Of a DNA stretch of 64,000 nucleotides, positions 4,716 through 64,000 are shown one piece after another; the stretch's first letter is position 1, and every line of letters begins with the position of its first letter. The DNA lies in the IMG/VR virus record IMGVR_UViG_3300027747_004308, positions 5,127-69,126 of that record. The stretch is one strand, 5' to 3'. The notes below the pieces were generated by a model that was not told the DNA's origin, ran no database searches, and saw only the letters and a program-made list of their open reading frames with translations. The stretch comes from a virus. The translations under genes and the position numbers were made by a program.

Positions 4716-5364
4716 AAAAGTATCTTAAACACATAAATGCCTCTGCATATTGCATCTTACATTCTGAACCACGTTGCAGCGCTTTATTACGTATACCCTC
4801 TGCGCTTCTTGGATGTGGGTGATTATTAATTTCACCTTTATAACATTGTAATGCTTGAATTTTTTTATTAATATCTTCTTTTGTCAGTTTAATATAAAAA
4901 TTTGGATTAAATTTCATATAGCTTTGCGGAAACCCTTGATCTGTACTGCTTATAATTTCACAGCAATATATTTGTTTTATATTACTAAATCCCCACACTC
5001 TAGAAGAGCGTATCATGTGCTCAAAAATTCTCTTATGATCTTGATGTACATCTCCCCAAAATGGAATAAAGAGTATTTCTGGATTTACCTCATGAGCAAT
5101 ATTTTCGAGATTCTTAAAAAGCTTTAACCCGTTATTATAGAGATATTCTTCTGTATAATTTAACCTTAATAACTGTTGATATCCAAGCACGCTTTTTGCT
5201 TTTTCTATATCCTTAAATTGTTGTGCAGTTCTTTCATCTTCTTCTCCACGACAAATAACAACAGTAATATCATTATTTTTTGATAGTTTATATAATGTGC
5301 CGCCCATACCTAGCGCCTCGTCATCACCATGTGGAAAAACCGCTAAAATTTTCTTATTGATCAT
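4708..5364 (-). CDS. PIG-L/LmbE family N-deacetylase
   Basis: PHGDDE..G.GG, HQDH motifs. Confidence 0.92.
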   Translation of the reverse strand: MINKKILAVFPHGDDEALGMGGTLYKLSKNNDITVVICRGEEDERTAQQFKDIEKAKSVLGYQQLLRLNYTEEYLYNNGLKLFKNLENIAHEVNPEILFIPFWGDVHQDHKRIFEHMIRSSRVWGFSNIKQIYCCEIISSTDQGFPQSYMKFNPNFYIKLTKEDINKKIQALQCYKGEINNHPHPRSAEGIRNKALQRGSECKMQYAEAFMCLRYFYE

Positions 5365-6194
5365 ATAGACAAAGCTATAGCTTCGTTCATATATTTTAAA
5401 TACAATTTATGTAATCTCAACAACGACAGCAATCCAATCCCCGTTCCATGCTCGTCAATAATACGGAGACGCGTATGATCATTAAAGCAATCTTCAAGCT
5501 TTGTCGACGTCCAAGGTTTTTTAGGACCATTAAACTGAAAATTATTGTTGTTAATACACGTATTAGCATCTAATAAAGAAGTAAGAAAATTATATTTTAA
5601 AGGAAGCATTGTTTTTTTATTTTCAAAATATGTATTAAGAATTGGCTCATCACTAGCCCATAAATTAGTACCGTTTTTTATTAGCGGAGCAGGAGATAAG
5701 CTTAATTCAATTAGTTCACTTCTTACCTTTTCATTAAGATATTCCTTACCTATAACCATAAGACCGGCATCAAAACAGTCTTCACCGACATATTGCGGAA
5801 TATATTCAGAAATTGATTTAACAACCCCAAAATTGCAATCCAATTCAATTAAAGGTTGAATGCTCTCTAGAACAAGAAAATCAGTATCAATAAAAATTAC
5901 CTTTTCATATTCTTTTAGACAAAATATTTCAAACCTATAATTGCAATTATATAGCCATTTACGATTTGTAGAGTCATATTCACATCTTTCATAAAGTGAG
6001 GTTTCAATAGGCTTAAAAAAAGTATTTTTATAGATAGTTTTAAGCTTTTGTTTATTTAAATCGCTTAAATCACCCCAGTCTAAAACAATAATATCAGATT
6101 TAAATCCCGGAGTGTTTTTAACTATACTATAAAAAGTAGTAAGCGCGCCAAGAATATAATTATCGTTTAAAACCGTTACAACTGCAGATTTCAT
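5361..6194 (-). CDS. glycosyltransferase family 8
   Basis: FIDTD (DxD), FDAGLMV, DEPILN, KYN, GPKKPW. Confidence 0.85.
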   Translation of the reverse strand: MKSAVVTVLNDNYILGALTTFYSIVKNTPGFKSDIIVLDWGDLSDLNKQKLKTIYKNTFFKPIETSLYERCEYDSTNRKWLYNCNYRFEIFCLKEYEKVIFIDTDFLVLESIQPLIELDCNFGVVKSISEYIPQYVGEDCFDAGLMVIGKEYLNEKVRSELIELSLSPAPLIKNGTNLWASDEPILNTYFENKKTMLPLKYNFLTSLLDANTCINNNNFQFNGPKKPWTSTKLEDCFNDHTRLRIIDEHGTGIGLLSLLRLHKLYLKYMNEAIALSI

Positions 6195-17168: not shown

Positions 17169-17747
17169 TTAGCTATAGAAATATACATTACCACTCTGGA
17201 AGTTCTGGTAATAGTAGGTACCATCAAAAGGATCAGCAAATGCAAAAGGTGTAGGGGGATTGAGTCTAGACGCATCAAAAGTTAAAGATGCAACTATTAC
17301 ATCATCCATATAGATGTTCATACCTATTGGCGCTTCAAATGTGGGGCTGTCACCATTATAATACAAGTATGCTGTTTCAGATTCTGCTTGGAAAAGAATA
17401 TTATCTTTAAAATCATCTGCAGATAATGATCTTGAAAGTACTGCAGGGCTTGGCGTCATTGAAGGTGTTACAGAAGGCGTACAAGTATGTGATGGTGTTA
17501 CAGAAGGCGTACAAGTATGTGATGGTGTTACTGAAGGTGTCTGTGTGACTGAAGGTGTTTGTGTCGGGGTTGGTGTGGTTGTTGGTGTTTGTGTTGGTGT
17601 AGGGGTATGGGTTGGCGTTGGAGGGGGTAATCCACCATTAACAGCAGCCGCAGCTCCTCGAAGCGAAACACCTTTAAATGAAGAGAAATCTGTAGCTGCG
17701 GATTGTCTTGCTCTCGATAAATCTCTAAAACTAGGAGGTGTTGCCAT
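17169..17747 (-). CDS. Thr/Pro-repeat late protein
   Basis: PT repeats incl. 30-bp tandem duplication 17464-17523; TAAATA-N5-ATG. Confidence 0.8.
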
Positions 17748-17787
17748 ACTATTATTTATATCTCAAGAGTATAATTTATTACATTTT

Positions 17788-18966
17788 TTACGGTATAATA
17801 AAGACTGCATCAGTTGGGAAGTAATATTGTGCGCCTGAAGGTACTGCAGAAATTCGGGCGACATATGTTGGACCTGAAGGAACATACTTATATCCAAAGT
17901 ATATATTGTTTATAGCATTGTCAGGTATATCGATTGTAGCTACAAGAGTATTAAAGTTTCTTATTACAGGATCATTATAAATCTTTAGAACATTAGTAAA
18001 GTTGCCACTGCCGATAACTGGATTGTAATAGAATAATGCTGGCGGCTTACCATTACATACCCTGCCTCCAAGCGAGTGATCTCCACTTGCGCTATTAAAG
18101 ACAGTACTGGGTATTGTTGGATAAAAGTCTTCACAACCCGTTAGAGTTACAGCAAACGTATACGGAATTGTTGGCGTTTGTGTTGGGGTATGCGAAGACG
18201 TTGGTGTTTGAGTGGGCTTTGTCGGAGTAACAGAAGGCGTATTCGTCGGTGTTCTTGTCGGTGTCGGTGTATTTGTCTTGGTAGGTGTAGGTGTTCTTGT
18301 CGGTGAGGCAGTTGGAGAATAAGTAGGGGTAAACGAAGGTGTAACAGAAATTGTAGGTGTGTTCGAAGGAGTGTTGGGTGGTGTCGCTGTTGGTGTAGGT
18401 GTGTTGGATTTTGTTAATGTGGGTGATAATGTCGGTGTCGGTGATTTTGTTGGCGATAAGGAAACAGTTGGTGTATGTGTCGGGGTCTTCGAAGGTGTAG
18501 GTGTATGTGTTGGTGTTTTCGAAGGCGTTTGTGTATTTGTTGGAGTCTTGGTTGGCGTAGTAGTAGGTGTTCCAGTTGGCGTTGCTGTCTTTGTCGGTGT
18601 CTGTGTTGGGGTGTTGGTAAACGTGGGTGTATTGGAAGGTGTAAGTGAGAATGTAATTGTTGGTGTAATTGTCTGTGTATTTGTTGGTGTTTGCGTAGGT
18701 GTAGGGGTAATTGTCGGAGATAGTGATACAGTTTGTGTATTTGTAGGTGTTTGTGTAGGGGTTTTGGTATTTGTAGGTGTTTGTGTCGGGGTCGGCGTAC
18801 CGGTTTTAGTTGGTGTTGGTGTTGGGGAACCGGTAGGTGTCATTGTAGGAGTCGCCGTTGGTGTGGGTGTTGGGGATGGAAGCACCGGTGTTATTGGTAT
18901 CATTCCAGTAGATCTACGCACTTCAAACTTAGTGTTTCTACGTATTTGAAATATATCCCCGGACAT
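17788..18966 (-). CDS. mucin-like Thr/Pro-repeat protein
   Basis: About 240 aa of TP repeats plus C-terminal domain; TAAATA-N6-ATG. Confidence 0.85.
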
Positions 18967-22458: not shown

Positions 22459-22662
22459 CGAACCTCCTTTTCCTATTGGGCTTAAAAAGCCTGCACTTAA
22501 TCTACCTCCAGAAAAATTGCGTAACCGATATGGTAGAATGGTTTATGGTCATAAGACTGCTGGGGCTATTGAAGTAATGACTAAAGAATGCTGGGATAAT
22601 AATAAGAAATATTTCGTACCGAATGGTGCGCGTAGTTGCGTTAAAAATTTCTCAAAAACTAC

Positions 22663-22690
22663 TTGACGTAACCTCTTCTTCCTTTATACT
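22663..22690 (+). promoter_or_regulatory. sigma70-type early promoter
   Basis: TTGACG-N16-TATACT, ATG 6 nt downstream. Confidence 0.8.
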
Positions 22691-22696
22691 ATAGGT

Positions 22697-23011
22697 ATGA
22701 TGAAAGATAAACCAACGTGGTTCTATACAAATGCTCCCACGCTCAAAGCAGCATTGAAATTAATGAAATCAAGACATAAAGTTAAACTCGCCCTTCGACT
22801 TAGTGATATTGAAGAGTTTATTAATCGAATGAAAGGGTCCCATGGTACTTGGCACCATCCTAAACTAGATAAACAAAATTTAAATCTTCTTGTGAGAGAA
22901 TTTTTAACACAAGAACCAGATGAATATTGGAATCAATATGCCAGGGTGGATATAGAAAAACTTAACTTCAATGTAGTTAAAGCTACAAAAAAGAACTTGA
23001 GTAATATTTAA
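22697..23011 (+). CDS. hypothetical early protein
   Basis: Directly after promoter. Confidence 0.75.
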   Translation: MMKDKPTWFYTNAPTLKAALKLMKSRHKVKLALRLSDIEEFINRMKGSHGTWHHPKLDKQNLNLLVREFLTQEPDEYWNQYARVDIEKLNFNVVKATKKNLSNI

Positions 23012-26046: not shown

Positions 26047-28506
26047 TTATTGATAAGTTATAAAAAGTATTCCTTGCCCAGGTTGATTACCGGATTGTGT
26101 CACCGTAGGAGTAGTTGTTGGTGTAGAAGTAGGTGTAGGTGTTAAAGTTGGAGAAGCCGATATTGTCGGTGTTGGTGACTTTGTTGGTGTTATTGTTTGC
26201 GTAATAGATGGCGTTGTTGTAGGTGTAATAGATGGCGTTATTGTAGGTGTAATAGATGGCGTTGGTGTAGAAGTAGGTGTAGGTGTTAAAGTTGGAGAAG
26301 CCGATATTGTCGGTGTTGGTGACTTTGTTGGTGTTATTGTTTGCGTAATAGATGGCGTTGTTGTAGGTGTAATAGATGGCGTTATTGTAGGTGTAATAGA
26401 TGGCGTTGGTGTAGAAGTAGGTGTAGGTGTTAAAGTTGGAGAAGCCGATATTGTCGGTGTTGGTGACTTTGTTGGTGTTATTGTTTGCGTAATAGATGGC
26501 GTTGTTGTAGGTGTAATAGATGGCGTTATTGTAGGTGTAATAGATGGCGTTGGTGTAGATGTTACTGCTATAGCCGATAGTGTTGGTGTTTGTGTTATTG
26601 TTTGCGTAATAGATGGCGTTGTTGTAGGTGTAATAGATGGCGTCGGTGTTGATGTCTGTAAAGGTGTATTAGGTGGAGTACGTGTTGGTGTAGATGTTAC
26701 TGCTATAGCCGATAGTGTTGGGGTTGGGGTTGATGTCTGTAAAGGTGTATTAGGTGGAGTACGTGTTGGTGTAGATGTTACTGCTATAGCCGATAGTGTT
26801 GGGGTCGGTGTTGATGTCTGTAAAGGTGTATTAGGTGGAGTACGTGTAGGTGTTGGTGTTGATGTTTGGGTTACTGTAGGTGTTAGTGTTATTGTCGGAG
26901 TAGGAGTAGGTGTATTAGTTAAGGTAAGCGTCGGTGTTTGGGTTACTGTAGGTGTTGGTGTATTCGAGGGCGGAGGGTAACTTGTGATAGGAGGTACATA
27001 TACACCACTTGCAGCAATTCCTAATATGAGAGAACCTGTATTTGTATAATAAATTGTATACAAGTTACCTAAATTGCTAGAAATAGTAGCGTTCTCAGTT
27101 ACAAAAATTTCTTGTTTATTAGCTGATAGTCCGCTTCCGTAATTAAAAGCTAGACTACAGTTAGAAAAATTACCGATATCAAAATAATTAGTAAAGCCTA
27201 GCACCTGTAAGTCGAGAGAGGCACTAAATGTCTCAACAGTTGTCGTTACAATAATAAAATTTGCAATTTCAGGATTTGAAATAGTTATAACTTCATTATT
27301 ATCAGTAATATAATTATATACATATGGTGTTGTAGGTGTTATGGTAACGGTTGGAGTGGGTGTTACAGTATGTGTCATTGTAGGTGTAGGAATTGGTATT
27401 TCACCTTGTTTTAACCGTACAGAATAACCAACTGTTGTACTATCACCACCAATGTAAATATATGAGGCACCATTATTAAAATTAATACAGGTATCACTAT
27501 CATTAACCCAGAAGCTGCCTCTTGAATGTAAATTTATAAATCCTCCAGTTCTGCAACCAGCTGGTACTACTGAAAATCCACTTTCATTTGTAGCTACATT
27601 AGGCGAATTCCATAATCCGTCATTATCTTGAATTGTGCCAGTGGTCTTCATCTTGGCACCTGCAACAGGCCATATACCGCCCCCTGCATCTGAGCCTCCT
27701 AAGCATATAATTAAATCTTCCCATTCTGCTAGAGATGGCACATGGTAGCCTTCTGGAGCCAATCCTCTCACATCAGTCACAGCATACCTATTGTATAGTT
27801 TGCCATAAATAGCACCATTTGTAGGGTCATTATCATAATAACACCAACCTGGACCTGTAGCAGTATTCCATTCTTCCTGATCTGTAATCTGAGGAATTGC
27901 ATCACCATTCCTAAATGTAGTTCCACTAAAGTTTACAAGTGACCAGTTGTTAAGACATGCAGATGGCGTTGTTGAGGTTGGAGTAGGTGTTGGTGTATTC
28001 GTTTTTGTTAAAGAAGGTGTTGGCGTGTTGGTAGGTGTCTGTGTATTAGTTGGCGTCTGTGATGGTGTATTAGAAGGCGTAGGGGTGAAAGTTGGCGTTA
28101 CAGAAGGTGTAACTGTTTGTGTAGGCGTATTCGTTGGTGTATATGTAGGTGTAGGGGTATGGGTAACCTGAGAAATAGAATTAACAAGATACCCTTTATC
28201 AGATAACTTAACATACCCCGCACCATTCAACGTAATGATATCGTACTTACCTGCTCCAGAAATACTGGCTAAATTAACTTTGAGCTGATTATCATCAACA
28301 ACTTCATAGTTGGTGTAAACAAAACCGTTAAACTCCGGAAATATAGCAGAAAGCCTTGGATATGAAGAGAAAGGATTAAAAGCAGAAGCTGTATAGAAAG
28401 TATTATCGCTTGTAGTACTTAAAAGAACGTATTGTGTCCATTTAAAATTATAACCTTTAACATATACAAATGTTGTCAGATTGTCTGTATAAGTGATATA
28501 ATTCAT
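26047..28506 (-). CDS. Thr/Pro-repeat virion protein with Fibrobacter succinogenes major paralogous (FISUMP) domain
   Basis: FRNGD.IP...WCYY.ND....YGKLYN..A...RGLAPEG.HVPS..EW...GYSVR flanked by PT repeats. Confidence 0.88.
26117..26559. repeat. three exact 144-bp tandem repeats (48 aa unit)
   Basis: Unit starts at 26117, 26261, 26405 (partial at 26549). Confidence 0.9.
26648..26847. repeat. 81-bp tandem repeats (27 aa unit, about 2.5 copies)
   Basis: gttgatgtctgtaaaggtgtattagg at 26648, 26729, 26810. Confidence 0.88.
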
Positions 28507-29276: not shown

Positions 29277-29370
29277 GCCTCCGTCGTCTAACTGGTTAAG
29301 ACCCACGATTTATACTCGTGAAGCTCTAGATGTGAGCGCAATATAGGTTCAAATCCTATCGGAGGTACCA
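29277..29370 (+). tRNA. tRNA with TAT anticodon (nominal Ile) and long variable arm, CCA encoded
   Basis: Acceptor gcctccg/cggaggt-a-cca; cacga-ttTATac-tcgtg; 22-nt variable arm; atagg-ttcaaat-cctat. Confidence 0.85.
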
Positions 29371-33609: not shown

Positions 33610-33631
33610 TTATAAAATTTCAAAAAAACAG

Positions 33632-33659
33632 TTGACTCTTTCCGCGGTTCAGCCATAAT
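33632..33659 (+). promoter_or_regulatory. sigma70-type early promoter
   Basis: TTGACT-N16-CATAAT. Confidence 0.8.
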
Positions 33660-33668
33660 ATATGGATC

Positions 33669-33995
33669 ATGAATAGCACATTGCTAGAACCAACGGTTCG
33701 TAAGAACCCGGCTAACCGAGAGAACGCCGCCAAGTCCTCTCGCGAGGTGACTCCTCGTTTGGTTTGTATTATTACCGGTAAGTCCCGTCTTACTAACGCC
33801 AAGTATTTGGCTTCGAAACCTGAAGGTTTCGTGACTAACTATATTGCTCGTCCCGCGCTGAAGCTCCTTCGCGCTGGTAAAAGCGTTCAGGACGTTCGGA
33901 CGGAACTCGGTGTGACCGACGTTACTACCGCAATCTCGGATAGCGCTCTCCAGAATGCTATCAAGATCAACGGTAAGTGGTCTAAACAGAGCTAA
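33669..33995 (+). CDS. hypothetical early protein (paralog of 22153-22458)
   Basis: Shared motif; GC-richer codon usage. Confidence 0.85.
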   Translation: MNSTLLEPTVRKNPANRENAAKSSREVTPRLVCIITGKSRLTNAKYLASKPEGFVTNYIARPALKLLRAGKSVQDVRTELGVTDVTTAISDSALQNAIKINGKWSKQS

Positions 33996-39528: not shown

Positions 39529-40174
39529 AAAGCTAAAAGAAAAAAGCGATAAAGGATTTTTTAGAACAGATCTTCCTCACACAAGTATTAATAATTGTGA
39601 TTGGTACAATCATATCTATTCTAGTCCTTCCGTTCGTTATGGTCATTTAGAATACTTTAAATCATACAATGATGCTATTGAAGTTGTGCATTGTGTTTTC
39701 TTTCCTTCTTACTATAAAGCTCTTCCTATCTTTGGCTATGATGCAATAAGCCTGGGCGGTAAAATAACTGGAGTATTTTGTGACTATACTCCAAGCCCTT
39801 ACCATGATATGATATTACAATCTTCTATAAGCTCTATTAAAGACAGTTTAAAGGATTTACAGAGAGACCTTCCCGGGTGGACAGAATTTTTTTCACCAGA
39901 GTTTATAGCTATAAGCCCTAGGGAGAAGTATGAAGAATCAGAAATAAAATGTATAACTCTATTTGATCTCTATATAGCTGTCACTAAAGAGTTTGATAAG
40001 AATAATAAGTTTCTTAACTGGGATGAAACAAGAGCCCATATAGATGGTCAAAATAAATATTCCATAGGTCAACGTAAGAACTCTAAGACACAGAAGGCTT
40101 TAGCAAAATATATAGGTGAAGATGCAGCAAAAGACTTTATTGAAAAGACACTTTTTCCAACATATAACTATTAA
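39503..40174 (+). CDS. ferredoxin-dependent bilin reductase, PcyA/PcyX-like
   Basis: GHLE, HCVFFP, LPIFGYD, D.TP, LP.W..FS, Q..Y...Q.KN.KT, FI...LFP. Confidence 0.9.
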   Translation: MSSLNDLYKKLKEKSDKGFFRTDLPHTSINNCDWYNHIYSSPSVRYGHLEYFKSYNDAIEVVHCVFFPSYYKALPIFGYDAISLGGKITGVFCDYTPSPYHDMILQSSISSIKDSLKDLQRDLPGWTEFFSPEFIAISPREKYEESEIKCITLFDLYIAVTKEFDKNNKFLNWDETRAHIDGQNKYSIGQRKNSKTQKALAKYIGEDAAKDFIEKTLFPTYNY

Positions 40175-40182
40175 ATATTTAA

Positions 40183-40737
40183 ATGGCCGATGTATTAATA
40201 TCTGATCTAACAACAGGAGTACCAAACGGATCTAATTTTATACCATATACAACAAGTTCTGATACAAACAAAACTCTTGTTTCTAGTATAACAGCTGCTT
40301 GCCAGCCAGTGAATTATATCGGCGCAAGTGTTACAAAAGCTACAATGACCGGTATTTTGGCTAATGTTGAAACAGATTGCAATTTTAACTCCACTACTTT
40401 TGATTCAAGTGGCTTCTACAATAATGCTGTTAGCAATTCTCGTCTTACTGTTCCCTCAGGTTTAGGTGGTATATATTTAATAACTGGCTATCTGACTACT
40501 TCAACTACTAGTGCATATTATAGAAACGGTATTCTTTTAGTAAAAAATACAGGCACTGTTATAGCGCGTAATGACACTTCTATTGGTTTAAATGGCGTTG
40601 ATGTTCCAATGACTATATCTGCAATTGTATCTCTTGTAGCTACAGATTACATTAGACTACGAGGCATTTGTGAAAATTTTTATAGTACTAATACTTTTAA
40701 AACACCTACACTAAGTATGATACGCCTTGGTGTATAA
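40183..40737 (+). CDS. short fibre/decoration protein, MADVxISDL leader with C1q/TNF-like head
   Basis: RLTVPSG.GGIYLI..., L..TDYI.L; TAAATA-N5-ATG. Confidence 0.75.
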   Translation: MADVLISDLTTGVPNGSNFIPYTTSSDTNKTLVSSITAACQPVNYIGASVTKATMTGILANVETDCNFNSTTFDSSGFYNNAVSNSRLTVPSGLGGIYLITGYLTTSTTSAYYRNGILLVKNTGTVIARNDTSIGLNGVDVPMTISAIVSLVATDYIRLRGICENFYSTNTFKTPTLSMIRLGV

Positions 40738-44420: not shown

Positions 44421-44441
44421 GTTTTTTATTAAATATTAGAT

Positions 44442-44984
44442 ATGGCCGACGTAACCATATCTGAATTAACTAATAGACAGCCTAATAGCTCGGCTGTATT
44501 TCCCTATTCAGAAGGCGGGACAACATATAATGCTGCGTTGAGCAACATTCTACCTAAAGGGCTCATATCTATGTGGTATGGTTCATTAGCCACAATACCA
44601 ACAGGCTGGGCATTGTGTGATGGTACAAACAATACACCTGATTTAAGAAATAGATTTATTGTTGGAGCTAATGTTGACAACGCAGGTATAGCTAATACCA
44701 ATATTACGGGATCGAACACCCAAACGGGGGGTTCAAAAGATGCTATTGTAGTTAGCCATAGTCACGGAATAACAGATCCTGGTCATTCTCACCTTGTATC
44801 TCCAAGTTATGGCAGGAATGTAGGCGGCGGAAGCAACCTGGTCATTCTTGGAAAAAATTATGACCCAAATCCAATTGGAACTACACAAAATCAAACAGGA
44901 ATTACTATCAATTCAGAAGGCTCATCAGGCACCAATCAGAACTTACCGCCTTTTTATGCCCTTGCATATATAATGAAGCTGTAA
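44442..44984 (+). CDS. tail collar-domain short fibre (MADVTISEL leader)
   Basis: P.G.I.MW.G....IP.GWALCDG...TPDLR.RF.VG; HSH; PPFYALAYIMK. Confidence 0.85.
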   Translation: MADVTISELTNRQPNSSAVFPYSEGGTTYNAALSNILPKGLISMWYGSLATIPTGWALCDGTNNTPDLRNRFIVGANVDNAGIANTNITGSNTQTGGSKDAIVVSHSHGITDPGHSHLVSPSYGRNVGGGSNLVILGKNYDPNPIGTTQNQTGITINSEGSSGTNQNLPPFYALAYIMKL

Positions 44985-45078
44985 TAACTATTACATGATT
45001 TTAGTAACAGCTTTAGGTTTGTTAGGTGTTTGTTCTATTGGGTTTATAGCTAATTTTATAAAAATTTAAAAAAGCTAG

Positions 45079-45106
45079 TTGCTTCCTCTAGAAAAGTACA
45101 TATAAT
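45079..45106 (+). promoter_or_regulatory. sigma70-type promoter of putative ncRNA
   Basis: TTGCTT-N16-TATAAT; no ATG follows; GTTCTTTGA boxA-like at 45115. Confidence 0.75.
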
Positions 45107-45112
45107 CATTAT

Positions 45113-45514
45113 AAGTTCTTTGATAGCAAATCTGTAAGAAGTAGAGGTTGGGACCTCGAAGGTAAATCTTGAATAGTCCAACGCCGAGACCCACAGGCGA
45201 ATACAAGTAGATATACTTGTAAATGAACGGGAGTATGATAGTAGCAACTATTAAGTGAAATTAATAAGAAGTAAGCCTGCTAAATCGAAAATCATACAGT
45301 GTAAACATCCCTGGCTAATATTACAAGTCTTAAAGCTTCGCTATGATGTAACAACATAGCACAGTACGTAGGCTGATTACATTTAACTAGGCTAGATAGT
45401 TATAGCCATTTAAATTCGAATACGATGTAATTGACTTGGCAGATTGCTAGTTTCTTTTGCGTAAACCGTGACGCGAGATTAGGGCGTATATAGCAATATA
45501 TACGCTCTTTTTTT
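45113..45514 (+). ncRNA. candidate large structured ncRNA (~400 nt), family unassigned
   Basis: Promoter, 5'/3' closing helix, multiple internal helices, terminator, no credible ORF. Confidence 0.7.
45481..45514 (+). terminator. intrinsic terminator
   Basis: AGGGCGTATATA-GCAA-TATATACGCTCT plus T run. Confidence 0.85.
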
Positions 45515-45527
45515 AATAAATATTTAA

Positions 45528-46076
45528 ATGGCAGATGTAGCAATATCTCAATTGACTCAAAGACAGCCTGCAGGAGCTGCATTAGTTCCTTACTCCGAAG
45601 GGGGTACTACATATAGTGCATCTGTTACCCAAGTCGTTTCACTTGCTTCAAATGTACCTTCTGGGGGTATTATATTATGGTCAGGCGCTGCAAACGCCAT
45701 TCCCTCCGGGTGGGTTCTCTGTGATGGTACAAATAGCACTCCTAATCTTGTTGATAGATTTGTAGTAGGAGCAGGAGTAACAACACCAGCAGTAGGAACA
45801 ACAGGTGGATTAAAGGATGCAATAGTAGTAAGTCATTCACATACAGCATCTGACTCCGGCCACGTGCATGCTATATTAGGCGTTAGTAGCTCGCGAGGAA
45901 AAGGAACAGCATTATTTGGCATTCTTGATACAAGCTTGTTTTCATCAACTACTAATGCTATCAAAGGCAATGGTCAAATTGGGGCCGCTAATATTACTGT
46001 AGCAGCTGAAGGCCAATCAGGTACTAATGCTAACCTTCCACCTTATTATGCTTTGTGCTACATAATGAAAGTGTAA
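45528..46076 (+). CDS. tail collar-domain short fibre (MADVAISQL leader)
   Basis: Collar motif; paralog of 44442. Confidence 0.85.
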   Translation: MADVAISQLTQRQPAGAALVPYSEGGTTYSASVTQVVSLASNVPSGGIILWSGAANAIPSGWVLCDGTNSTPNLVDRFVVGAGVTTPAVGTTGGLKDAIVVSHSHTASDSGHVHAILGVSSSRGKGTALFGILDTSLFSSTTNAIKGNGQIGAANITVAAEGQSGTNANLPPYYALCYIMKV

Positions 46077-46631: not shown

Positions 46632-47789
46632 ATGAGAATTAAATTACCGGAGTTACAAAAAGTAACTTTGGAAACAGGAACAAGGTATTACGTAACACCT
46701 GAAGGACAGAAGTATCCTTCAGTCACAACAGTTCTATCTGAAGAAAAAAAGAAAGGTCTTAAAAGATGGCGCGATCGTGTTGGAGATGAAGAAGCTGATA
46801 GGATTAAAAATTTTGCCGCTAAGAGAGGAACCGCATTTCATTCGCTTTGTGAAGAGTTCCTTGATAATAAAGTTCCGCTAGATACTATAGGAGGTATGTT
46901 TAATCAGTTTAAACCTCTTTTAACCCGTATTAGTGACATAAGATGTATGGAGCAACACCTATATTCAGATAAGCTGAGAGTTGCAGGTCAGGTAGATTGT
47001 GTTGGTAGGTTTGACGATATGTTATCAATTATTGATTTTAAGACGAGTTCTAAACTAAAGAAGCGTGAATATATATGGGATTACTTCATGCAAGCTAGCG
47101 CTTATAGTTATATGTTTGAAGAGCGCACCGGTATCGCTATTTCAGATATTACTGTTCTCATTAGTTGTGAATCCGGTGAATGTCAAGTCTTTCAAGATAA
47201 AAGAGAGAACTGGATTGAGGGGTTTAAAAAGCTCCGAGAACAGTATGATATAAAGAAAGTTGTTGCAGAAGAAGAAAAAGTCACCTACAATAAGAAGATA
47301 GTGAGTGATAGAGTTACTAGTAAATGGACTAAGACTACCATAGAAGCTTTTGGAGATAAACCGAACGTTCGCAAAGGAGTTAAAGCAGAAGAAATAGTTT
47401 TCTCTTATCTTAAAAAGACATATAACAAGGTAACTTGGTTTCATGACAAGCGTGATAAACAGTTACAGGGTATTGATTTCGAATTTAAGAAAGATTCGTG
47501 GTACAATAGTTATACTGCAGATGTAAAAGGTAATATGTCAAAAAGAATGTTTAGAGTGTACCCAGATGAAATAAAAGATAAAGCAAATCATCGTATGATT
47601 CATGTAGATATAGATACAGGATGGGCGGTAGAATATGATAGAAAATCTATGTTAGCTTATTTAGAACATAAGCCAGAATATATTCAGATTGATAAGAATA
47701 ACAAAAGATATGCGGAATTTGATGCGTCTTATCGTCATCTTCGTAGAGATATAAACTACTTTAGACCTTTTTTAATAAAGCTTGCTTAA
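46632..47789 (+). CDS. PD-(D/E)XK exonuclease fused to second nuclease-like domain
   Basis: YPSVTTVL, RGT.FH, AGQVD, IDFKT, Q.SAY; C-terminal G..AE...GIDF...DVK. Confidence 0.85.
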   Translation: MRIKLPELQKVTLETGTRYYVTPEGQKYPSVTTVLSEEKKKGLKRWRDRVGDEEADRIKNFAAKRGTAFHSLCEEFLDNKVPLDTIGGMFNQFKPLLTRISDIRCMEQHLYSDKLRVAGQVDCVGRFDDMLSIIDFKTSSKLKKREYIWDYFMQASAYSYMFEERTGIAISDITVLISCESGECQVFQDKRENWIEGFKKLREQYDIKKVVAEEEKVTYNKKIVSDRVTSKWTKTTIEAFGDKPNVRKGVKAEEIVFSYLKKTYNKVTWFHDKRDKQLQGIDFEFKKDSWYNSYTADVKGNMSKRMFRVYPDEIKDKANHRMIHVDIDTGWAVEYDRKSMLAYLEHKPEYIQIDKNNKRYAEFDASYRHLRRDINYFRPFLIKLA

Positions 47790-50332: not shown

Positions 50333-50812
50333 ATGAAAATTGGATTTAATTGCAGTTCTTTTGATCTATTACATTGCGGTCATGTTACTATGCTTCGAAT
50401 GGAAAGAGAACTTTGTGATTATCTTAAAGTAGCTTTACAGGTTGACCCAACAATTGATAGACCAGGAGTTAAAAATAAGCCTGTGCAGAGCATTTATGAG
50501 AGATATGTCCAGCTTCAAGCATGTAAATATGTAGATGAGATTCTTGTATATAGTACAGAGTTTGATTTGCTTCAACTATTAATGACACAAACAATAAATG
50601 TTCGCTTTTTGAGTGAAGAGTATGAGAATAGAGACTTTACAGGTAAACAATATTGCATTGACAATGGTATAGAGCTTCACTACCATAAGCGCCGTCATGT
50701 ATATTCCTCTAGTGAGCTAAGAGAGAGAACAGCTAAGCTAGAAACTGCTAAAAACGAAGCAGTTATAGCTGTTCCGCCTCAGTATTCTCCTGAGCTAATA
50801 AAAAAGAGTTGA
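50333..50812 (+). CDS. cytidylyltransferase (TagD-like)
   Basis: SFDLLHCGH (HxGH), KNKP, ER, YVDEI, R.H.YSSS. Confidence 0.9.
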   Translation: MKIGFNCSSFDLLHCGHVTMLRMERELCDYLKVALQVDPTIDRPGVKNKPVQSIYERYVQLQACKYVDEILVYSTEFDLLQLLMTQTINVRFLSEEYENRDFTGKQYCIDNGIELHYHKRRHVYSSSELRERTAKLETAKNEAVIAVPPQYSPELIKKS

Positions 50813-50836
50813 CCTATTCCGAAATTCAGCCATAAT
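50809..50836 (+). promoter_or_regulatory. sigma70-type early promoter
   Basis: TTGACC-N16-CATAAT, ATG 6 nt downstream; overlaps upstream TGA. Confidence 0.8.
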
Positions 50837-50842
50837 ATTGGC

Positions 50843-51109
50843 ATGATGAAAAAACAAACGAACAAAGAGTATAGTCTGTTGGTATATATGAAAGCTCAAC
50901 ACAAGTATACTGATTCAGAGGTACAATTAGAAACATTGTGTATGGAAAAGTTTAACGGTCGCAATGTTGGAGGAGGAACTGACTTGAGTACTGGTAAGCG
51001 CGATCAGCAATTTGCATTCGAGAAGCTTACTGATGCAAAAGCTTTCCTTAAGCACCCCTTTACTAGAGCCGTTATTCTTAAAGATTACGATCTTGTAGAA
51101 GTAGATTAA
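50843..51109 (+). CDS. hypothetical early protein
   Basis: After promoter. Confidence 0.75.
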   Translation: MMKKQTNKEYSLLVYMKAQHKYTDSEVQLETLCMEKFNGRNVGGGTDLSTGKRDQQFAFEKLTDAKAFLKHPFTRAVILKDYDLVEVD

Positions 51110-51644: not shown

Positions 51645-51833
51645 TGAAAACAGTTTTAATTTATGATATTGAATACGAAGCTTATGATAAGCGTAAAAAG
51701 CTTCCCTCTGAACTAGTTGCAGATCTTGATGATTATCAATGTCAAGTAGGGTTTGGTAATTTGAACTATCGCTCCCATCAAGCGGTTAAAGAAGCTACAG
51801 GCGTTAACGTAAAGTATTGTAAAATAAAAAATC

Positions 51834-51861
51834 TTGACTAAAGGCTATATTCCTTCATAAT
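51834..51861 (+). promoter_or_regulatory. sigma70-type early promoter
   Basis: TTGACT-N16-CATAAT, ATG 6 nt downstream. Confidence 0.8.
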
Positions 51862-51867
51862 ATTGGT

Positions 51868-52149
51868 ATGATGAAAACAATGACAGCAAAGCAGTATCAC
51901 AAACAGTTTGAAAAAGACTGGAATGAATGGAGAGAAATGATGCAGACGCTTTCTCCTTTAACCCAACTTCATGTTCGTTCAGGAGCATCTTATAATCTGA
52001 GTAGAGAGCTAGAAGGCACTGGGTGTGGAATTAGTTCTTCTGATATTAATCATGAGATGTTTAGCATTTGGAAAAGTAATAATAAAAATAAACATTCTTA
52101 TGTCCGAGAATGTGTTGATCTTTATGAGAGGCGTATCAATGCATCTTAA
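51868..52149 (+). CDS. hypothetical early protein
   Basis: After promoter. Confidence 0.75.
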   Translation: MMKTMTAKQYHKQFEKDWNEWREMMQTLSPLTQLHVRSGASYNLSRELEGTGCGISSSDINHEMFSIWKSNNKNKHSYVRECVDLYERRINAS

Positions 52150-53373: not shown

Positions 53374-54256
53374 ACTGAATCTGTGTTCCTGCATAATATT
53401 AAAACTATGAATAAACACGACTTTGCATATAACTTGAGACGCATCATTGAATTGGCTCAGCGCAGCACAGAGACCATAGGACATGAAGGTGATGATTGTA
53501 GTATTATTAAAGTGATTGCAGAAGACATGTTGAGGCATTGCAATGAACAAATTTAAATTTGAATGGCAGTTTATGGATGGTAAATCCTCTGACAAGGTTG
53601 GTAGTGTGGAGATATGCAGACCCACATTGACTATGCAATTTGAAGCTACTACTATTGATGAGGTTTTGAGACAAGTAGGCTATTTTCTTAAGGGATGTTC
53701 TTATGAATTTGAAGGAGAAGTGGGTATTGTAGATGAATAACTTGATTGATGCATGGTTTACAGTTGACCAGCTAATTGACATACGAACTGCTGTGAAGTA
53801 TTTCTATGATCACAATATCAGTGGAAATAAAAAAAGAGATGATCTTCATGATATTCTCGATCACCTAGACCATCTTATTAAACATTATGAATAAAGTAAT
53901 AGAAAAAGTATCAATCATCTGGACATTGTTGCTTGGTATTTTGAGTTGGTTAATTATTATTGGTGGAACAACTATTGCAATTCATCTATTAAAATGACTA
54001 AGAAAGAAGCACTTACAACCTTAAAGCGTATTGGTAGGGATCCCGGTCTAGCAGATCAATTTACTGAAGAAGAAATAGAAAAACTAGAAGAATTAGCAGC
54101 AAGAAAATGAGTGTAAGTCTTATTATATTGGTGGGGTTGATATACCTATATGTGGCTGTGGATCAATTGCTTAAAGGTAATCTAGGCATGGGTATTTGTT
54201 ACTTGAGTTATGCTGTGGCTCAAGTTGGATGGTATTGGATTGCAGTAAAATAAGTC

Positions 54257-54284
54257 TTGACCTATTCCTAATTTCAGCCATAAT
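54257..54284 (+). promoter_or_regulatory. sigma70-type early promoter
   Basis: TTGACC-N16-CATAAT, near copy of 50809 promoter. Confidence 0.8.
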
Positions 54285-54290
54285 AGTAGT

Positions 54291-54824
54291 ATGATGAATG
54301 AAACAATAGAACAAATTGATTGGAATGCATTGTATTCTGTGGGTAAAGATAGCAAGGATTTTACCTTTGATTTATTTGACCCCTTGCTCTTAGCAGATAA
54401 TCCTGCAAGTCAAAACTGGACAGCTACAGTTAGCTTCCGTGGTCGTTATGGAGACAGAGCCAATGCAAAGAAGAATATCATCTTCCGCAGCGGTGTTCCT
54501 AGTCCTAGGGAACTAAAAGCTAGTCATCCATATTTCATGGAAGAGCCTATGCCTAGCGTTAAAGGCGTGAATAAAGAGAATGATAAATTGTGGCGTAAGT
54601 TTAATAGGATGGAGCTTAGGCTCGATGAAGCTTTTCTATCTGCTTTCTTTAATGCGGCTTCTTTTGAAATTCAGAGCTTCCTGATTGAAGCAGGCTGGTA
54701 TGGTCGTAAGTTTAGCATGTATGCAGGTTGTAGTATGTGCAGGTGTTCCCCTGGATACAACCTCAAAAGTGCTAACGGATTCATCAAGAATACTGCCATT
54801 GATGTGGTCTTTAAAAAGAAATGA
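54291..54824 (+). CDS. hypothetical early protein (AGCSMC.CSPG motif)
   Basis: After promoter. Confidence 0.8.
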   Translation: MMNETIEQIDWNALYSVGKDSKDFTFDLFDPLLLADNPASQNWTATVSFRGRYGDRANAKKNIIFRSGVPSPRELKASHPYFMEEPMPSVKGVNKENDKLWRKFNRMELRLDEAFLSAFFNAASFEIQSFLIEAGWYGRKFSMYAGCSMCRCSPGYNLKSANGFIKNTAIDVVFKKK

Positions 54825-58518: not shown

Positions 58519-58543
58519 TAATAAATAGGCCATAAATAATAAT

Positions 58544-59086
58544 ATGGCCGATGTATCCATCTCTGAATTACCCTTAGCTATTTCTGGTAATGCTAATAAT
58601 GTAGTTCCTATATCAAACGGTTTGGGAACATTTGGTCTAACATTAGGAGCAGTATGTGGGGTCATGACTTCAGCACAGATCACTACAGCTCTGGGATACA
58701 CACCATACAATGGAGCAACCAATCCTGCAGGCTATATAACCTCATCAAGTCTACCTAACACACAGCAACTAGCAAAGGCATGGGTTAATTTTAATGGAAC
58801 AACAGGTACAACTGTTGCAAATGAGTTCCAGTGCACAATAAGATCTGCCTATAATGTCAGTAAGGTGGTTAGGAATACTACAGGAGATTATTCAGTATAT
58901 TTTAATAATGTCTTTGCAGATGCTAATTATTGTGCCATCATATCCTCAGGGTCTCCGTATCAAGCTGTTCCACACGCTGAAACCTATAGTGCATCGGCTT
59001 TTCGATTTAAAAATAACTATATACCAAGTAATAGCGGAAATACTCTGCTGGATTCTGCAAATTTTAGCGTGGCCATCTTTAGATAG
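58544..59086 (+). CDS. short fibre protein (MADVSISEL leader)
   Basis: ITTALGYTPY, AKAWVNFNG...AYNVS.V...TGDY.V.F fibre tip motif. Confidence 0.8.
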   Translation: MADVSISELPLAISGNANNVVPISNGLGTFGLTLGAVCGVMTSAQITTALGYTPYNGATNPAGYITSSSLPNTQQLAKAWVNFNGTTGTTVANEFQCTIRSAYNVSKVVRNTTGDYSVYFNNVFADANYCAIISSGSPYQAVPHAETYSASAFRFKNNYIPSNSGNTLLDSANFSVAIFR

Positions 59087-59956: not shown

Positions 59957-60046
59957 TTTTTAATGGCAAAAGGAGAGCGTATTTTATTAGCTTTAGCGCA
60001 CGGTTCAGAATCGAATTTTTACCTGAGTTGATATTAAATAATTGAT

Positions 60047-60628
60047 ATGGCCGATGTATCCATCTCTGATCTCTCTGATCTGGCTCCTGCTTCTAATACC
60101 TATATTCCTCTATCAAACGGAACAACAACGGGAAGAGCTTTAACAAATAATCTACCCGGCCTTACGCCCATAGGAGGCATCATTATGTGGTCAGGATCCT
60201 TAGCCTCCATACCAACAAATTGGGCATTATGCAATGGATCTAATGGTACCCCCAATCTTCAGGATAGATTTATAGTAGGAGCAGGTAGCTCATATGCAGT
60301 CAATGGAACAGGGGGATCGGCTACTGCATCAGGAAGTACAGATGCAACTGCTCTTTCATTGAGTCAAATACCCTCTCATTCCCATACTGTATCAGATCCA
60401 GGCCATTCACACCTTTTATCGCCAAGTTATGGCATGTATGCAGGCATCGGATACAACCCGATCATTCTTACAAATAATTACACCTCTTCTCAAGTTGGAA
60501 CTACACAAAATAAAACAGGAATCTCTATTGCAGCAACTGGAGGCAATCAAGGACATAGTCATACAGTATCTTCTATTGGTACGATTCCTCCTTATTATGC
60601 ATTAGCTTATATAATGAGGGTATCTTAA
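60047..60628 (+). CDS. tail collar-domain short fibre (MADVSISDL leader)
   Basis: Collar motif; HSH repeats. Confidence 0.85.
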   Translation: MADVSISDLSDLAPASNTYIPLSNGTTTGRALTNNLPGLTPIGGIIMWSGSLASIPTNWALCNGSNGTPNLQDRFIVGAGSSYAVNGTGGSATASGSTDATALSLSQIPSHSHTVSDPGHSHLLSPSYGMYAGIGYNPIILTNNYTSSQVGTTQNKTGISIAATGGNQGHSHTVSSIGTIPPYYALAYIMRVS

Positions 60629-60629
60629 T

Positions 60630-61187
60630 ATGGCAGACGTTACGATTACCGATCTTCCCACAATTACTCCTTCAAGAGGATTGACTGTACCAGCCTCTGA
60701 TGGAACAACTACAGGAAAGCTAACTATTACACAAATTGCTGATCAAATAGTTCCTATAGGTTCCATACTATTATGGTCAGGATCCATAGCTAGTATACCA
60801 ACAAATTGGGCATTATGTAATGGATCTAATGGTACTCCAGATCTTAGAAACAGGTTCATTGTAGGGGCTAATGTCGATAATGCAGGAGTTGCTAATACCA
60901 ATATTACAGGTTCAAACACTCAGACGGGAGGTACCAAGGATGCTATTGTAGTTGATCACACCCATTCGGTATCAGATCCCGGTCATGTTCATTCAATTAC
61001 TGGTACTATATTTTCTCAAACATTTGGACCCAATATTGGGGTTGGAGCAAGCTCTACATATTCTAAAGTTAATCCAAATACTAATTCTGCTACAACTGGA
61101 ATTTCAGTTAATTCTACTGGCCAATCAGGCTCTAATGCCAATCTTCCTCCATATTATACCTTGGCTTATATCATGAGAACAAGCTGA
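60630..61187 (+). CDS. tail collar-domain short fibre (MADVTITDL leader)
   Basis: Collar motif. Confidence 0.85.
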   Translation: MADVTITDLPTITPSRGLTVPASDGTTTGKLTITQIADQIVPIGSILLWSGSIASIPTNWALCNGSNGTPDLRNRFIVGANVDNAGVANTNITGSNTQTGGTKDAIVVDHTHSVSDPGHVHSITGTIFSQTFGPNIGVGASSTYSKVNPNTNSATTGISVNSTGQSGSNANLPPYYTLAYIMRTS

Positions 61188-62485: not shown

Positions 62486-62725
62486 ATGTTAAATAAATCA
62501 AACCAAAAACAATACCAACAACTATATAAACAATTTGAAAAAGCATTTTGGAAAATGTATAACTTTACTGAAAAGCATAAAGTAGAAGGTATTGAGGGTA
62601 GTGTGCATTTTATTGAAAGTATTGATTTGTGGAGTATTGAAGTAGAAGGGTGTAATGATTTGAATGAAGAAAACAAAAAGTTAAGGGCTAAATTGGGTTT
62701 GAAGGATTGTGAAAGTATTGACTAA
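62486..62725 (+). CDS. hypothetical early protein
   Basis: Own promoter. Confidence 0.8.
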   Translation: MLNKSNQKQYQQLYKQFEKAFWKMYNFTEKHKVEGIEGSVHFIESIDLWSIEVEGCNDLNEENKKLRAKLGLKDCESID

Positions 62726-62751
62726 ATCCAAATTTCAAATATAATATAAAA

Positions 62752-62922
62752 ATGAAAATTAATAAAAATGAATTGAAGGTGGGTTATATATTTGAAGGTA
62801 GTGAGGGTAGTGATGAAATTGTAGTGCATATTGATAATGATGATGGGATGGTTTATTGTAGGCATTTAGAGGAAGATGGTAATAGATATAAAATTGAAAG
62901 GGATGGAAGTATTAAAGTTTGA
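62752..62922 (+). CDS. hypothetical early protein (56 aa, not in ORF track)
   Basis: MKINKNELKVGYIFEG...; own promoter. Confidence 0.75.
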   Translation: MKINKNELKVGYIFEGSEGSDEIVVHIDNDDGMVYCRHLEEDGNRYKIERDGSIKV

Positions 62923-63648: not shown

Positions 63649-63942
63649 ATGAAATATGTGGCTTTAAATATTGATACTGAATGTGGTGGAGATGGTTGGG
63701 TGCAGAATTATAATGAAGAAGAATTGAAAGAAAATGTGAGTGGTTTTAGGTTTTCTGAAAAGATGGATAGTGGTGTTAAGTTTTATAATGATGGTGAAGA
63801 AGATTTTAGCACTTTGATAGTGTTGAATGAGAAGGGGTTAAATGAGTTAAGAAAAATGTTGGATGGAGCTAAACCCTTCTATCCCAACAAATTAGATTAT
63901 AAGAGTTGGTTGAATAGTGTTGAAGAAGATGATGATGAGTAA
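63649..63942 (+). CDS. hypothetical acidic early protein
   Basis: Own promoter. Confidence 0.8.
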   Translation: MKYVALNIDTECGGDGWVQNYNEEELKENVSGFRFSEKMDSGVKFYNDGEEDFSTLIVLNEKGLNELRKMLDGAKPFYPNKLDYKSWLNSVEEDDDE

Positions 63943-64000
63943 GATTTGAGTTGACCAAATAAGCAATTCCCATATAATAGGAGGATGATGAAAACAGAAA

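Follow-up and report, generated by a model that had tools for sequence, protein, structure and literature searches.

A probable new family of highly structured non-coding RNA in a clade of large freshwater T4-like bacteriophages

Background

What is encoded by a stretch of phage DNA that lies in a gene-dense region and yet has no credible open reading frame (ORF)? The question is raised by 543 bases between two tail-collar genes (44442-44984 and 45528-46076) in a window of 64,000 nucleotides (nt), which comprises positions 5,127 to 69,126 of the IMG/VR virus record IMGVR_UViG_3300027747_004308. The virus record to which the window belongs has a length of 69 kb and an estimated completeness of 29%; the window carries T4-type baseplate and long-tail-fibre genes as well as six transfer RNA (tRNA) genes. 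A first-pass annotation, made from the letters alone, had proposed that 45079-45514 holds an early-promoter-driven, structured non-coding RNA (ncRNA) of about 400 nt, possibly of a new class.

In this study, we report the homologs, predicted fold, transcription signals and genomic setting of this element, and show that the core of the earlier proposal is upheld by covariation in 25 homologs and by a promoter layout kept in 25/25 of them. The interval 45079-45514 is very probably a gene in its own right, the product of which is a stable and highly structured ncRNA that acts in trans and represents a new family in a clade of large freshwater T4-like phages. That the RNA is real, expressed, structured, non-coding and new as a family can be stated with, if anything, slightly greater confidence, and its action in trans rather than as a cis-regulatory element is likely, at a somewhat lower level of confidence.

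Homologs of the element

The gene of a PD-(D/E)XK exonuclease located 1.1 kb downstream of the element was used as a lead, and gave six related IMG/VR loci. The element was present in all five related records searched (5/5), with 98% identity in two of them and about 67% in the others. In the initial alignment, blocks without any change were separated by stretches with compensatory changes. Scans of IMG/VR with three patterns yielded 9, 13 and 5 loci, among which six chance matches were recognised and discarded (five from pattern 2, L104-L108, and one from pattern 3, L136; loci are denoted by L numbers). A pattern scan of metagenome contigs yielded 27 loci, 24 of which fitted an nhmmer profile; the loci L125, L129 and L131 had no match to the profile and were rejected as chance matches.

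The search for relatives in IMG/VR, which had been suggested together with the original proposal, was thus successful. In all, 25 distinct full-length sequences (window included) and one truncated copy were obtained from freshwater phage and metagenome contigs, and all 25 lie on phage-like contigs. A covariance model, R1 (340 positions, 55 pairs), detected exactly one copy in each of the related records to which it was applied (4/4), including a complete genome of 229,717 bp.

Secondary structure and covariation

The folding energy of the + strand was -100.7 kcal/mol (z = -2.90), and 0/100 shuffles folded as well; the - strand was not outstanding (z = -1.41, 9/100 shuffles as good). RNAalifold, applied to the 25 sequences, predicted 55 pairs, 29 of them changed on both sides; after trimming of the alignment to the span from P1 to P1, 30/55 pairs were changed on both sides. 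A 60-pair structure was written out by hand and scored on the 25-sequence alignment, with partners slid by 1-3 columns as controls. Standard pairs were formed in 97.8% of cells, compared with 31.8-37.1% when the partners were slid. Changes on both sides were observed at 30 of the 60 pairs versus 4-7 in the slid controls, and in 162 cells versus 5-24. The observed covariation values were attained by none of 500 column shuffles; related sequences can outscore shuffles, a weakness of which the slid controls are free. Covariation among homologs had been named in the first-pass annotation as a means of checking the RNA, and is clearly present. The helices are as follows.

45124-35 / 45439-50, + strand: closing helix P1; 3/12 pairs changed on both sides
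45136-39 / 45167-70, + strand: P2, AAGA/TCTT, enclosing P2a; 2/4 pairs changed on both sides
45144-48 / 45153-57, + strand: P2a, GAGGT/ACCTC with loop UGGG; 3/5 pairs changed on both sides
45174-78 / 45313-17, + strand: P3, TAGTC/GGCTA, enclosing P4, P5 and P6; 100% of cells paired
45182-85 / 45196-99, + strand: P4 hairpin, CGCC/GGCG, with a 10-nt loop containing CCCACA; invariant in 25/25 copies, bases required by the search patterns
45202-09 / 45214-21, + strand: P5 hairpin of 8 bp with an invariant GAUA loop; 7/8 pairs changed on both sides
45229..45311, + strand: P6 domain in its short form, with GGGA 45229-32 / TCCC 45308-11, GTATGAT 45233-39 / ATCATAC 45291-97 and inner hairpins, from the subgroup RNAalifold
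45324-29 / 45433-38, + strand: P7, CAAGTC/GACTTG, enclosing P8, P9 and P10; 6/6 pairs changed on both sides
45334-36 / 45372-74, + strand: P8, AGC/GCT, enclosing P8a and a conserved ACGUA; 1/3 pairs changed on both sides
45341-46 / 45356-61, + strand: P8a, variable hairpin GCTATG/CATAGC; folds in 25/25 copies with unrelated sequences
45375-83 / 45424-32, + strand: P9, GATTACATT/GATGTAATT; 4/9 pairs changed on both sides
45391-94 / 45403-06, + strand: P10, within GGCTA 45390-94 / TAGCC 45403-07; 3/4 pairs changed on both sides

Three arms, namely P2/P2a, P3 (with P4, P5 and P6) and P7 (with P8-P10), extend from a multi-helix junction that is closed by P1. This closing helix had been read earlier as 45124-35/45439-49, joining the 5' and 3' ends, and the changes on both of its sides support that reading; its outer part pairs in two registers, a GCAA/UUGC type and a UUUU/AGAA type. 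The 3' strands of P9, P7 and P1 follow one another without a gap (45424-45450), so that a single uninterrupted strand takes part in three helices.

The internal helices listed in the first-pass annotation fared differently from one another. The pairings gaggt/acctc, tacaagta/tacttgta, ttacat/atgtaa and ggcta/tagcc are backed by covariation in the 25 homologs, gtatgat/atcatac is retained in the subgroup fold, and gctatg/catagc proved to be the variable hairpin P8a. The pairing of agcctgc (45274) with gtaggct (45368) found no support, the GCU being paired with AGC 45334-45336 and the agcctgc segment not being conserved. The cgcc/ggcg helix is the invariant P4, and covariation information cannot be drawn from it. 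Absent from the earlier list were AAGA/TCTT, TAGTC/GGCTA, CAAGTC/GACTTG and GGGA/TCCC.

Variation in P3 is limited to one C-G in place of U-A (L120) and to one pair that is U-A in 14 copies and U-G in 11, and the helix is partly invariant because the search patterns required AGTCC. Likewise, both sides of the candidate UGGG/CCCA kissing pair are invariant, partly since CCCA was required by the patterns. The P6 domain has the short form in 7 sequences (window included) and a long form with extra hairpins in 18; for the long form 24 further pairs were predicted, of which 10 are changed on both sides. P2a is flanked by AGUA (45140-43) and GAA (45158-60), an arrangement that we take to resemble a loop-E or sarcin-ricin module. 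Within P9 lie P10, two invariant segments (TTAACT and AGTTA) and the palindrome ATTCGAAT (45414-45421). The invariant unpaired bases are those of the 5' leader, AGUA and GAA, the GGG and CCCACA loops, the GAUA loop, ACGUA, UUAACU and AGUUA. Few large RNAs are known in which many of the junction and loop bases are invariant, and almost all of these are ribozymes, riboswitches or cores of ribonucleoproteins.

Transcription signals and limits of the gene

The signals that flank the folded core are the following.

45059..45078, + strand: A-rich, UP-element-like tract 5' of the -35 hexamer; A-rich in most of the 25 homologous loci (upstream alignment)
45079..45106, + strand: sigma-70-type promoter, TTGCTT 45079-45084, 16-nt spacer, TATAAT 45101-45106, read from the letters
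45114..45123, + strand: conserved 5' leader AGUUCUUUGA, the 'boxA-like' element of the first-pass annotation; AGTTCNTTGA in 25/25 copies
45451..45515, + strand: 3' extension with a U-rich tract, a small hairpin (45459-45474) and an intrinsic terminator (45481-45508) plus T-run

The TTGCTT-N16-TATAAT promoter was confirmed, as was the lack of an ATG after it, the sequence at 45114-45123 being AGTTCTTTGA instead. When the 25 loci were compared by eye, the -35 was TTGC-type in 21, TTGATT in 1 and GTGGAA-type in 3, and the -10 was TATAAT, TATTAT or TATACT in every locus, at a constant distance from AGTTC. The promoter was not on the list produced by a simple scan because TTGCTT fits only 3/6 positions of the -35 consensus used by that scan. 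The A-rich tract at 45059-45078 may act as an UP element, and the distance to the -10 places the transcript start probably within 45114-45123. The leader, AGUUCNUUGA, is kept in 25/25 copies, with a variable middle base. A scan of the window for the boxA-like AGTTCNTTGA with at most one mismatch gave 23 matches versus 20.6 expected, none of them at the tRNA cluster.

At the 3' end, the scan found the GCAA-capped terminator that had been described earlier, with 12 pairs and a GCAA loop at 45481-45508 followed by a T-run. The small hairpin and the strong terminator are common to 7/25 copies (the window, L083, L116, L120, L110, L117 and L111). The remaining 18/25 have only a U-tract immediately 3' of P1, and in at least 12 of these 18 a TTGAC -35-like hexamer of the next gene, identified by eye, lies within ~40 nt. 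The promoter and the end signals are conserved, and the element therefore constitutes a separate transcription unit.

The hairpin 45459-45474, between P1 and the terminator, is kept in 7 copies, those in which P1 is of the GCAA/UUGC type and a strong terminator is present. P1 type, P6 form and promoter type are not always linked (e.g. in L134, L118 and L122), which suggests recombination between variants of the RNA gene.

RNA libraries

The run index gave 20 runs, six of them RNA libraries, from 12 studies, and the label of many was freshwater or lake; runs with a share <0.2 were left out. Contigs of all the metatranscriptome runs examined (4/4, from 4 studies) lie on 45129-45442. Mapping of metatranscriptomes had been proposed in order to find a discrete transcript of 400 nt, and was answered in part: contigs of four runs do lie on the RNA gene, and a discrete transcript, its ends, strand and level are not shown by assembled contigs.

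Three of the four runs had no contig on the flanking tail-collar genes, and in run X16 the contig depths were 815-2754 on the RNA gene, 10.7 for a contig of the upstream gene and 192 for one that spans 45340-45649. Neither observation was used as evidence; contig depth and missing cover cannot rank genes or prove transcription. The contigs of X15/X16 start at 45140/45141 and that of X17 at 45129, after adapter-like letters, and these positions were not taken as an RNA end.

Coding potential

The ORFs overlapping the gap in the window are all at most 63 amino acids (aa) long and none is conserved, in agreement with the earlier statement that the gap lacks a credible ORF. When the six frames of the 25 copies were analysed, no frame was open across the element, the longest stop-free stretch being 95 of about 115-123 codons, and no frame was common to the copies, which differ in the lengths and frames of their ORFs. 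Variable columns are about equally frequent in the three phases, without 3-periodicity. A conserved ORF had been named at the outset as one of the findings that would refute the non-coding reading; none of the 25 copies has a conserved frame, and the element is best described as non-coding.

Comparison with known RNA families

At the gathering score, Rfam 15 reported only the 6 tRNAs in the whole window, and at E<=10 the region of the element gave 9 weak, chance-level matches, the best with 22 bits against a gathering score of 49. Rfam 15 on the long-form copy L085 gave 2 weak matches only. ARAGORN found no transfer-messenger RNA (tmRNA) in the window, the tmRNA of Methylophilales phage Melnitz being found as the control. 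The models RF00010 and RF00011 had no match in the phage record at E<=10, with controls found in 11/14 reference genomes. The comparison with Rfam that had been recommended thus yielded no family, and the earlier remark that hallmarks of tmRNA, RNase P and group I introns are missing, and that the class may be new, is in line with these searches.

When RF00023 and RF04321 were run on five related records, the sole match above cut-off was elsewhere, at 197801-198204 of the complete relative. This match (G005:C1:197801-198204, locus L149) is a standard tmRNA (RF00023, 87 bits), lies far from the new RNA gene and was not reported by ARAGORN.

Ideas of a Y-RNA/Ro-like, T-box-like or CsrB-like RNA, or of a template of a diversity-generating retroelement, were also considered and set aside, with no repeat of the region in the window and no Rfam match. 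A full-text search of the literature found no description of the RNA. According to PMC10690425, a screen published in 2023, 8,495 unnamed candidate structured RNAs were predicted from IMG/VR, and the present RNA may be listed among them.

Genomic setting

The genes flanking the element, 44442-44984 and 45528-46076, are paralogs that belong to PHROG tail-collar families. Neighbourhoods of the 25 copies were counted from our own ORF calling and clustering. The PD-(D/E)XK exonuclease gene is found downstream, on the same strand and within 4 kb, in 18/25 loci, with no other + strand ORF ahead of it in 11; a conserved ORF of 125 aa lies downstream in 19 loci. Other genes are often inserted in between, in the window a tail-collar gene and a 173-aa ORF, for which no relatives were found. 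The first downstream gene varies between loci, being a tail-collar gene in the window and a member of other ORF clusters elsewhere. The conserved small ORFs of the neighbourhood, inspected by eye, showed no RNA-related feature.

The best cultured relatives of the exonuclease are those of phage Melnitz (Kyanoviridae, 41.6% identity) and of T4-like cyanophages. In most relatives the exonuclease is a protein of 215 aa; that of the window (46632-47789) has 385 aa and can be matched to it over only about the first 210 residues. The C-terminal extension, about 170 aa long, is also present in L082/L083, L120 and L110 (382-385 aa).

A tRNA gene on the same strand lies within 3 kb upstream of the element in 14/25 loci, and in 11/16 of the loci that hold at least 2 kb of upstream sequence. 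The closest upstream tRNA is at a distance of 67 nt, in L097.

Proposed mode of action and alternative explanations

On the basis of the signals and the fold, the following course is proposed. A host-type sigma-70 promoter would start transcription at about 45114, early in infection, and transcription would end at the U-tract right after P1 or, in the subtype of the window, at the strong terminator 30-60 nt further on. P1 would protect both ends of the RNA, which would then act in trans through its fold, invariant loops and junctions. Because many loop and junction bases are invariant, the RNA is probably a particle that binds some component, from host or phage, of the tRNA/translation machinery; formation of a homo-oligomer through a self-complementary segment is possible.

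Several observations weigh against an independent gene for a trans-acting RNA, or limit what can be built on it. Two of the search patterns demanded the AGTCCAACGCC...CCCACAGG block, so that part of the invariance seen in the P3/P4 region was built in by the search. The family is narrow and confined to one freshwater phage clade. When R1 was applied to 50 further freshwater phage records (from 80 tail-collar loci), it gave no real hit and one partial match with E = 0.06, and in the records of T4 and Melnitz it had no match; the 80 loci around tail-collar homologs had no nhmmer or blastn match to the element. A blastn search of the GenBank phage collection found no DNA match, and the pattern scan of one genome each of 185,579 prokaryote species returned 0. 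Pfam, applied to 7 neighbours, identified the nuclease only, so that no partner protein or target was found among them. The adjacency to tRNA genes is a tendency (14/25) and not a rule, because the tRNA cluster of the window lies 15.4 kb from the RNA gene. Finally, the start, end, strand and level of a transcript cannot be read from assembled contigs, and part of the sequence in an RNA library may derive from DNA.

Among the alternatives, a cis-acting leader was considered, in which a riboswitch- or T-box-like sensor would govern read-through to the exonuclease operon, with P1 and the U-tract as a regulated terminator. The same-strand exonuclease gene within 4 kb in 18/25 loci, where it is the first downstream + strand ORF in 11, is what such a leader would call for, the U-tract right after the P1 3' strand in 18/25 copies could couple folding to termination, and a fold closed by P1 is found in many aptamers. 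The next gene, however, usually has a TTGAC...TATAAT-type promoter of its own after the U-tract, with the ATG a few bases on, and the first downstream gene varies; moreover, seven copies, the window included, carry a strong terminator that is unconditional, no riboswitch or T-box family was matched, and the contigs of the RNA libraries lie on the RNA gene itself. A leader of this kind is improbable. Compensatory changes in the helices and the covariation statistics argue strongly against a further explanation, that the conservation stems from a small protein gene on either strand, from a gene decayed between tail-collar paralogs, or from a site acting at the DNA level, such as an origin or a protein-binding palindrome. 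The minus-strand ORF of 63 aa at 45056-45247, which overlaps the 5' part and has a similar open counterpart in 13/25 loci, the location of the window's element between two paralogous genes and the presence of the palindrome ATTCGAAT could be cited in its favour. Against it, every frame is interrupted in each of the 25 copies and the variable columns are even over the phases, insertions and deletions have lengths that are not multiples of three, tail-collar genes do not flank the element in most relatives, and the region has no repeat elsewhere in the window. We give this explanation next to no credence.

A very divergent tmRNA (standard or permuted) or RNase P RNA, kept beside phage tRNA genes, is also highly improbable and is largely refuted, although the position at a tRNA island in 14/25 loci and the permuted tmRNA of Melnitz, about 500 nt from the orthologous PD-(D/E)XK nuclease gene, would suit it. 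A superficial likeness may be seen between the order P1, hairpin, GAAUAGUCC and the 5' portion of RNase P RNA, and between AAUAGUC and the stretch that comes before a tmRNA resume codon. ARAGORN and the Rfam models for tmRNA, permuted tmRNA and RNase P are nevertheless empty on the RNA, and the complete relative has a genuine, separate tmRNA (197801-198204, 87 bits). P1 is not followed by ACCA, and between the T-loop-like UUCGAAU and the P1 3' strand lie the 3' strands of P9 and P7. The peptides and stops after UAGUC differ between copies and the peptide ends are unrelated, which leaves no conserved tag frame. UAGUC itself is paired with GRCUA, its U pairing with A in 14 copies and with G in 11 where the bulged-U helix of RNase P was looked for, and about 120 nt, a whole extra domain (P7-P10), lie between the 3' strands of P3 and P1, unlike the core layout of RNase P. 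Two specific candidates were rejected on these grounds: the RNase P P4-like pairing GAAUAGUCCAA/UUGACUUGG, since GACUUG pairs with CAAGUC in P7, where 6/6 pairs covary, and RF00010/RF00011 are empty; and a tmRNA identity, prompted by the Melnitz tmRNA beside the orthologous nuclease gene, since neither ARAGORN nor Rfam matched the gene and R1 misses the Melnitz tmRNA.

Relation to known phage RNAs

ROOL and GOLLD have recently been shown to build RNA-only cages. The RNA described here resembles them in being phage-encoded, in having a same-strand tRNA gene within 3 kb in 14/25 loci, in its fold of at least 10 helices and in one palindrome-to-palindrome switch. It differs in being much shorter (a core of 327-350 nt, about 400 nt with the tail) and in being confined to one freshwater phage clade. 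Moreover, its switch is not at adjacent bases, an intramolecular mini-hairpin is possible and the oligomer is putative. In 10.1101/2024.12.08.627333, ROOL and GOLLD are described as phage-encoded RNAs of unknown function, often near tRNA islands, with elaborate structures supported by covariation; Rfam holds profiles of both according to the same source, and the present RNA has no match in Rfam 15.

The stable RNAs rnaC and rnaD (species 1 and 2) of T4 are located, by the annotation of the record, directly downstream of the tRNA cluster and on the same strand, which is the usual place of the new RNA in relatives of the window. They have 139 and 119 nt, unlike the present RNA, which also has its own promoter, and R1 with filters off had no match in T4 70908-71171 (rnaC/rnaD). 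RNase P RNA is of similar size and would share a closing P1, a 5' hairpin, an A-rich joiner, a long-range helix containing AGUCC and a functional link with tRNA genes; it differs in lacking the extra 3' domain found here, and its bulged-U helix is not conserved in the present RNA, in which the U pairs with A in 14/25 copies.

The tmRNA of Melnitz, a related aquatic T4-like phage, is likewise the product of a large stable RNA gene in the same early-gene neighbourhood (PD-(D/E)XK nuclease, small ORFs, RNA gene). The present RNA has no tmRNA feature, R1 does not detect the Melnitz tmRNA, and the complete relative has a true tmRNA in addition. Melnitz and tmRNA are discussed in PMC9004378. In L142 (Methylophilales phage Melnitz-3), a permuted tmRNA (RF04321, 113 bits, tag ANDNYVPVDYALAA) was identified at 5186-5652, with a glutamine riboswitch aptamer (RF01739, 52.8 bits) right after it, both just downstream of the PD-(D/E)XK nuclease gene.

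ROOL, GOLLD and T4 rnaC/rnaD are analogues, not homologues, of the new RNA. By genomic habit, that of a stable phage RNA at the edge of a tRNA island, it may be regarded as the same kind of RNA, in a family of its own. A compact family of 330-400 nt with the genomic habit of ROOL and GOLLD offers a smaller and more tractable case, with clean covariation, a defined promoter and terminator and an occurrence in metatranscriptome libraries of four studies, which could be used for cryo-electron microscopy and for asking why phages set such RNAs beside tRNA genes. It also annotates an unexplained gap in abundant freshwater phage genomes.

Palindromic segment and possible self-association

The fold offers a single hint to the mechanism, a single-stranded segment inside P9. 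This segment is ATTCGAAT in most copies, GTTCGAAT in two and TTATCGATAA in L110, L117 and L111, the last three belonging to both P6 forms. The change from ATTCGAAT to TTATCGATAA is a paired one, and self-complementarity is therefore kept. In 10.1101/2024.12.08.627333, palindrome switches in OLE, ROOL and GOLLD are taken as evidence of symmetric intermolecular kissing loops.

The case for self-association has its own counterweights. The switched bases flank an invariant UCGA, so that a mini-hairpin of 2-3 bp with a UCGA loop explains them equally well, and the switch is a single one, seen in 3/25 sequences. Palindromes of at least 8 nt occurred in 1611/2000 shuffles of the RNA, and the palindrome alone was rejected as evidence. 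Self-association through the palindromic segment is thus a tentative suggestion, to which we would assign a rather low probability.

On a similarly speculative footing, the RNA could be a third, smaller and independent family of 'ornate' RNA of tRNA islands, an RNA-only homo-oligomer formed via ATTCGAAT/TTATCGATAA, perhaps with the help of UAACUU/AAGUUA and GGG/CCC, which are complementary and invariant, that would bind or enclose a component of the tRNA/translation machinery early in infection. For steric reasons, UAACUU and AAGUUA beside P10 are not pairable within one molecule. If this were true, multimeric RNA particles would be a recurrent invention of large phages and not a peculiarity of ROOL and GOLLD.

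Other features of the window and its relatives

An unusually long tRNA-Ile(UAU) of 93-94 nt is found at 29277-29370 of the window and in L084 (3876-3969), L102 (11820-11912), L127 (12577-12670) and L122 (4603-4696); the extra length could be due to an intron or to a long extra arm, or the call could be wrong.

Several small tail-collar paralogs have products that start with MADV..., e.g. those encoded at 44442-44984, 45528-46076, 58544-59086, 60047-60628 and 60630-61187. A conserved A/T-rich motif stands directly before tail-collar ATGs at 40169-40203, 44427-44464, 45514-45548, 58530-58564 and 60032-60069 (families D7, D10, D12, D15 and D17), and looks similar to a T4-type late promoter. A promoter-like family, D9, consists of TTGAC, a spacer and ATAAT, and has 7 members in which the ATG follows a few bases after the -10.

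22654-22704, 33623-33673, 50800-50850, 51825-51875, 54248-54298, 62709-62759, 63942-63992: D9 repeats

The same layout also precedes the exonuclease gene in relatives, and would suggest leaderless or near-leaderless early mRNAs. Lastly, very long G/T-rich arrays on the + strand with a period of 6, 12 or 24 nt (D1-D5) were found at 17459-18877 and 26075-28151, within the large minus-strand ORFs 17788-18966 and 26047-28506, which presumably encode repetitive fibre or surface proteins.

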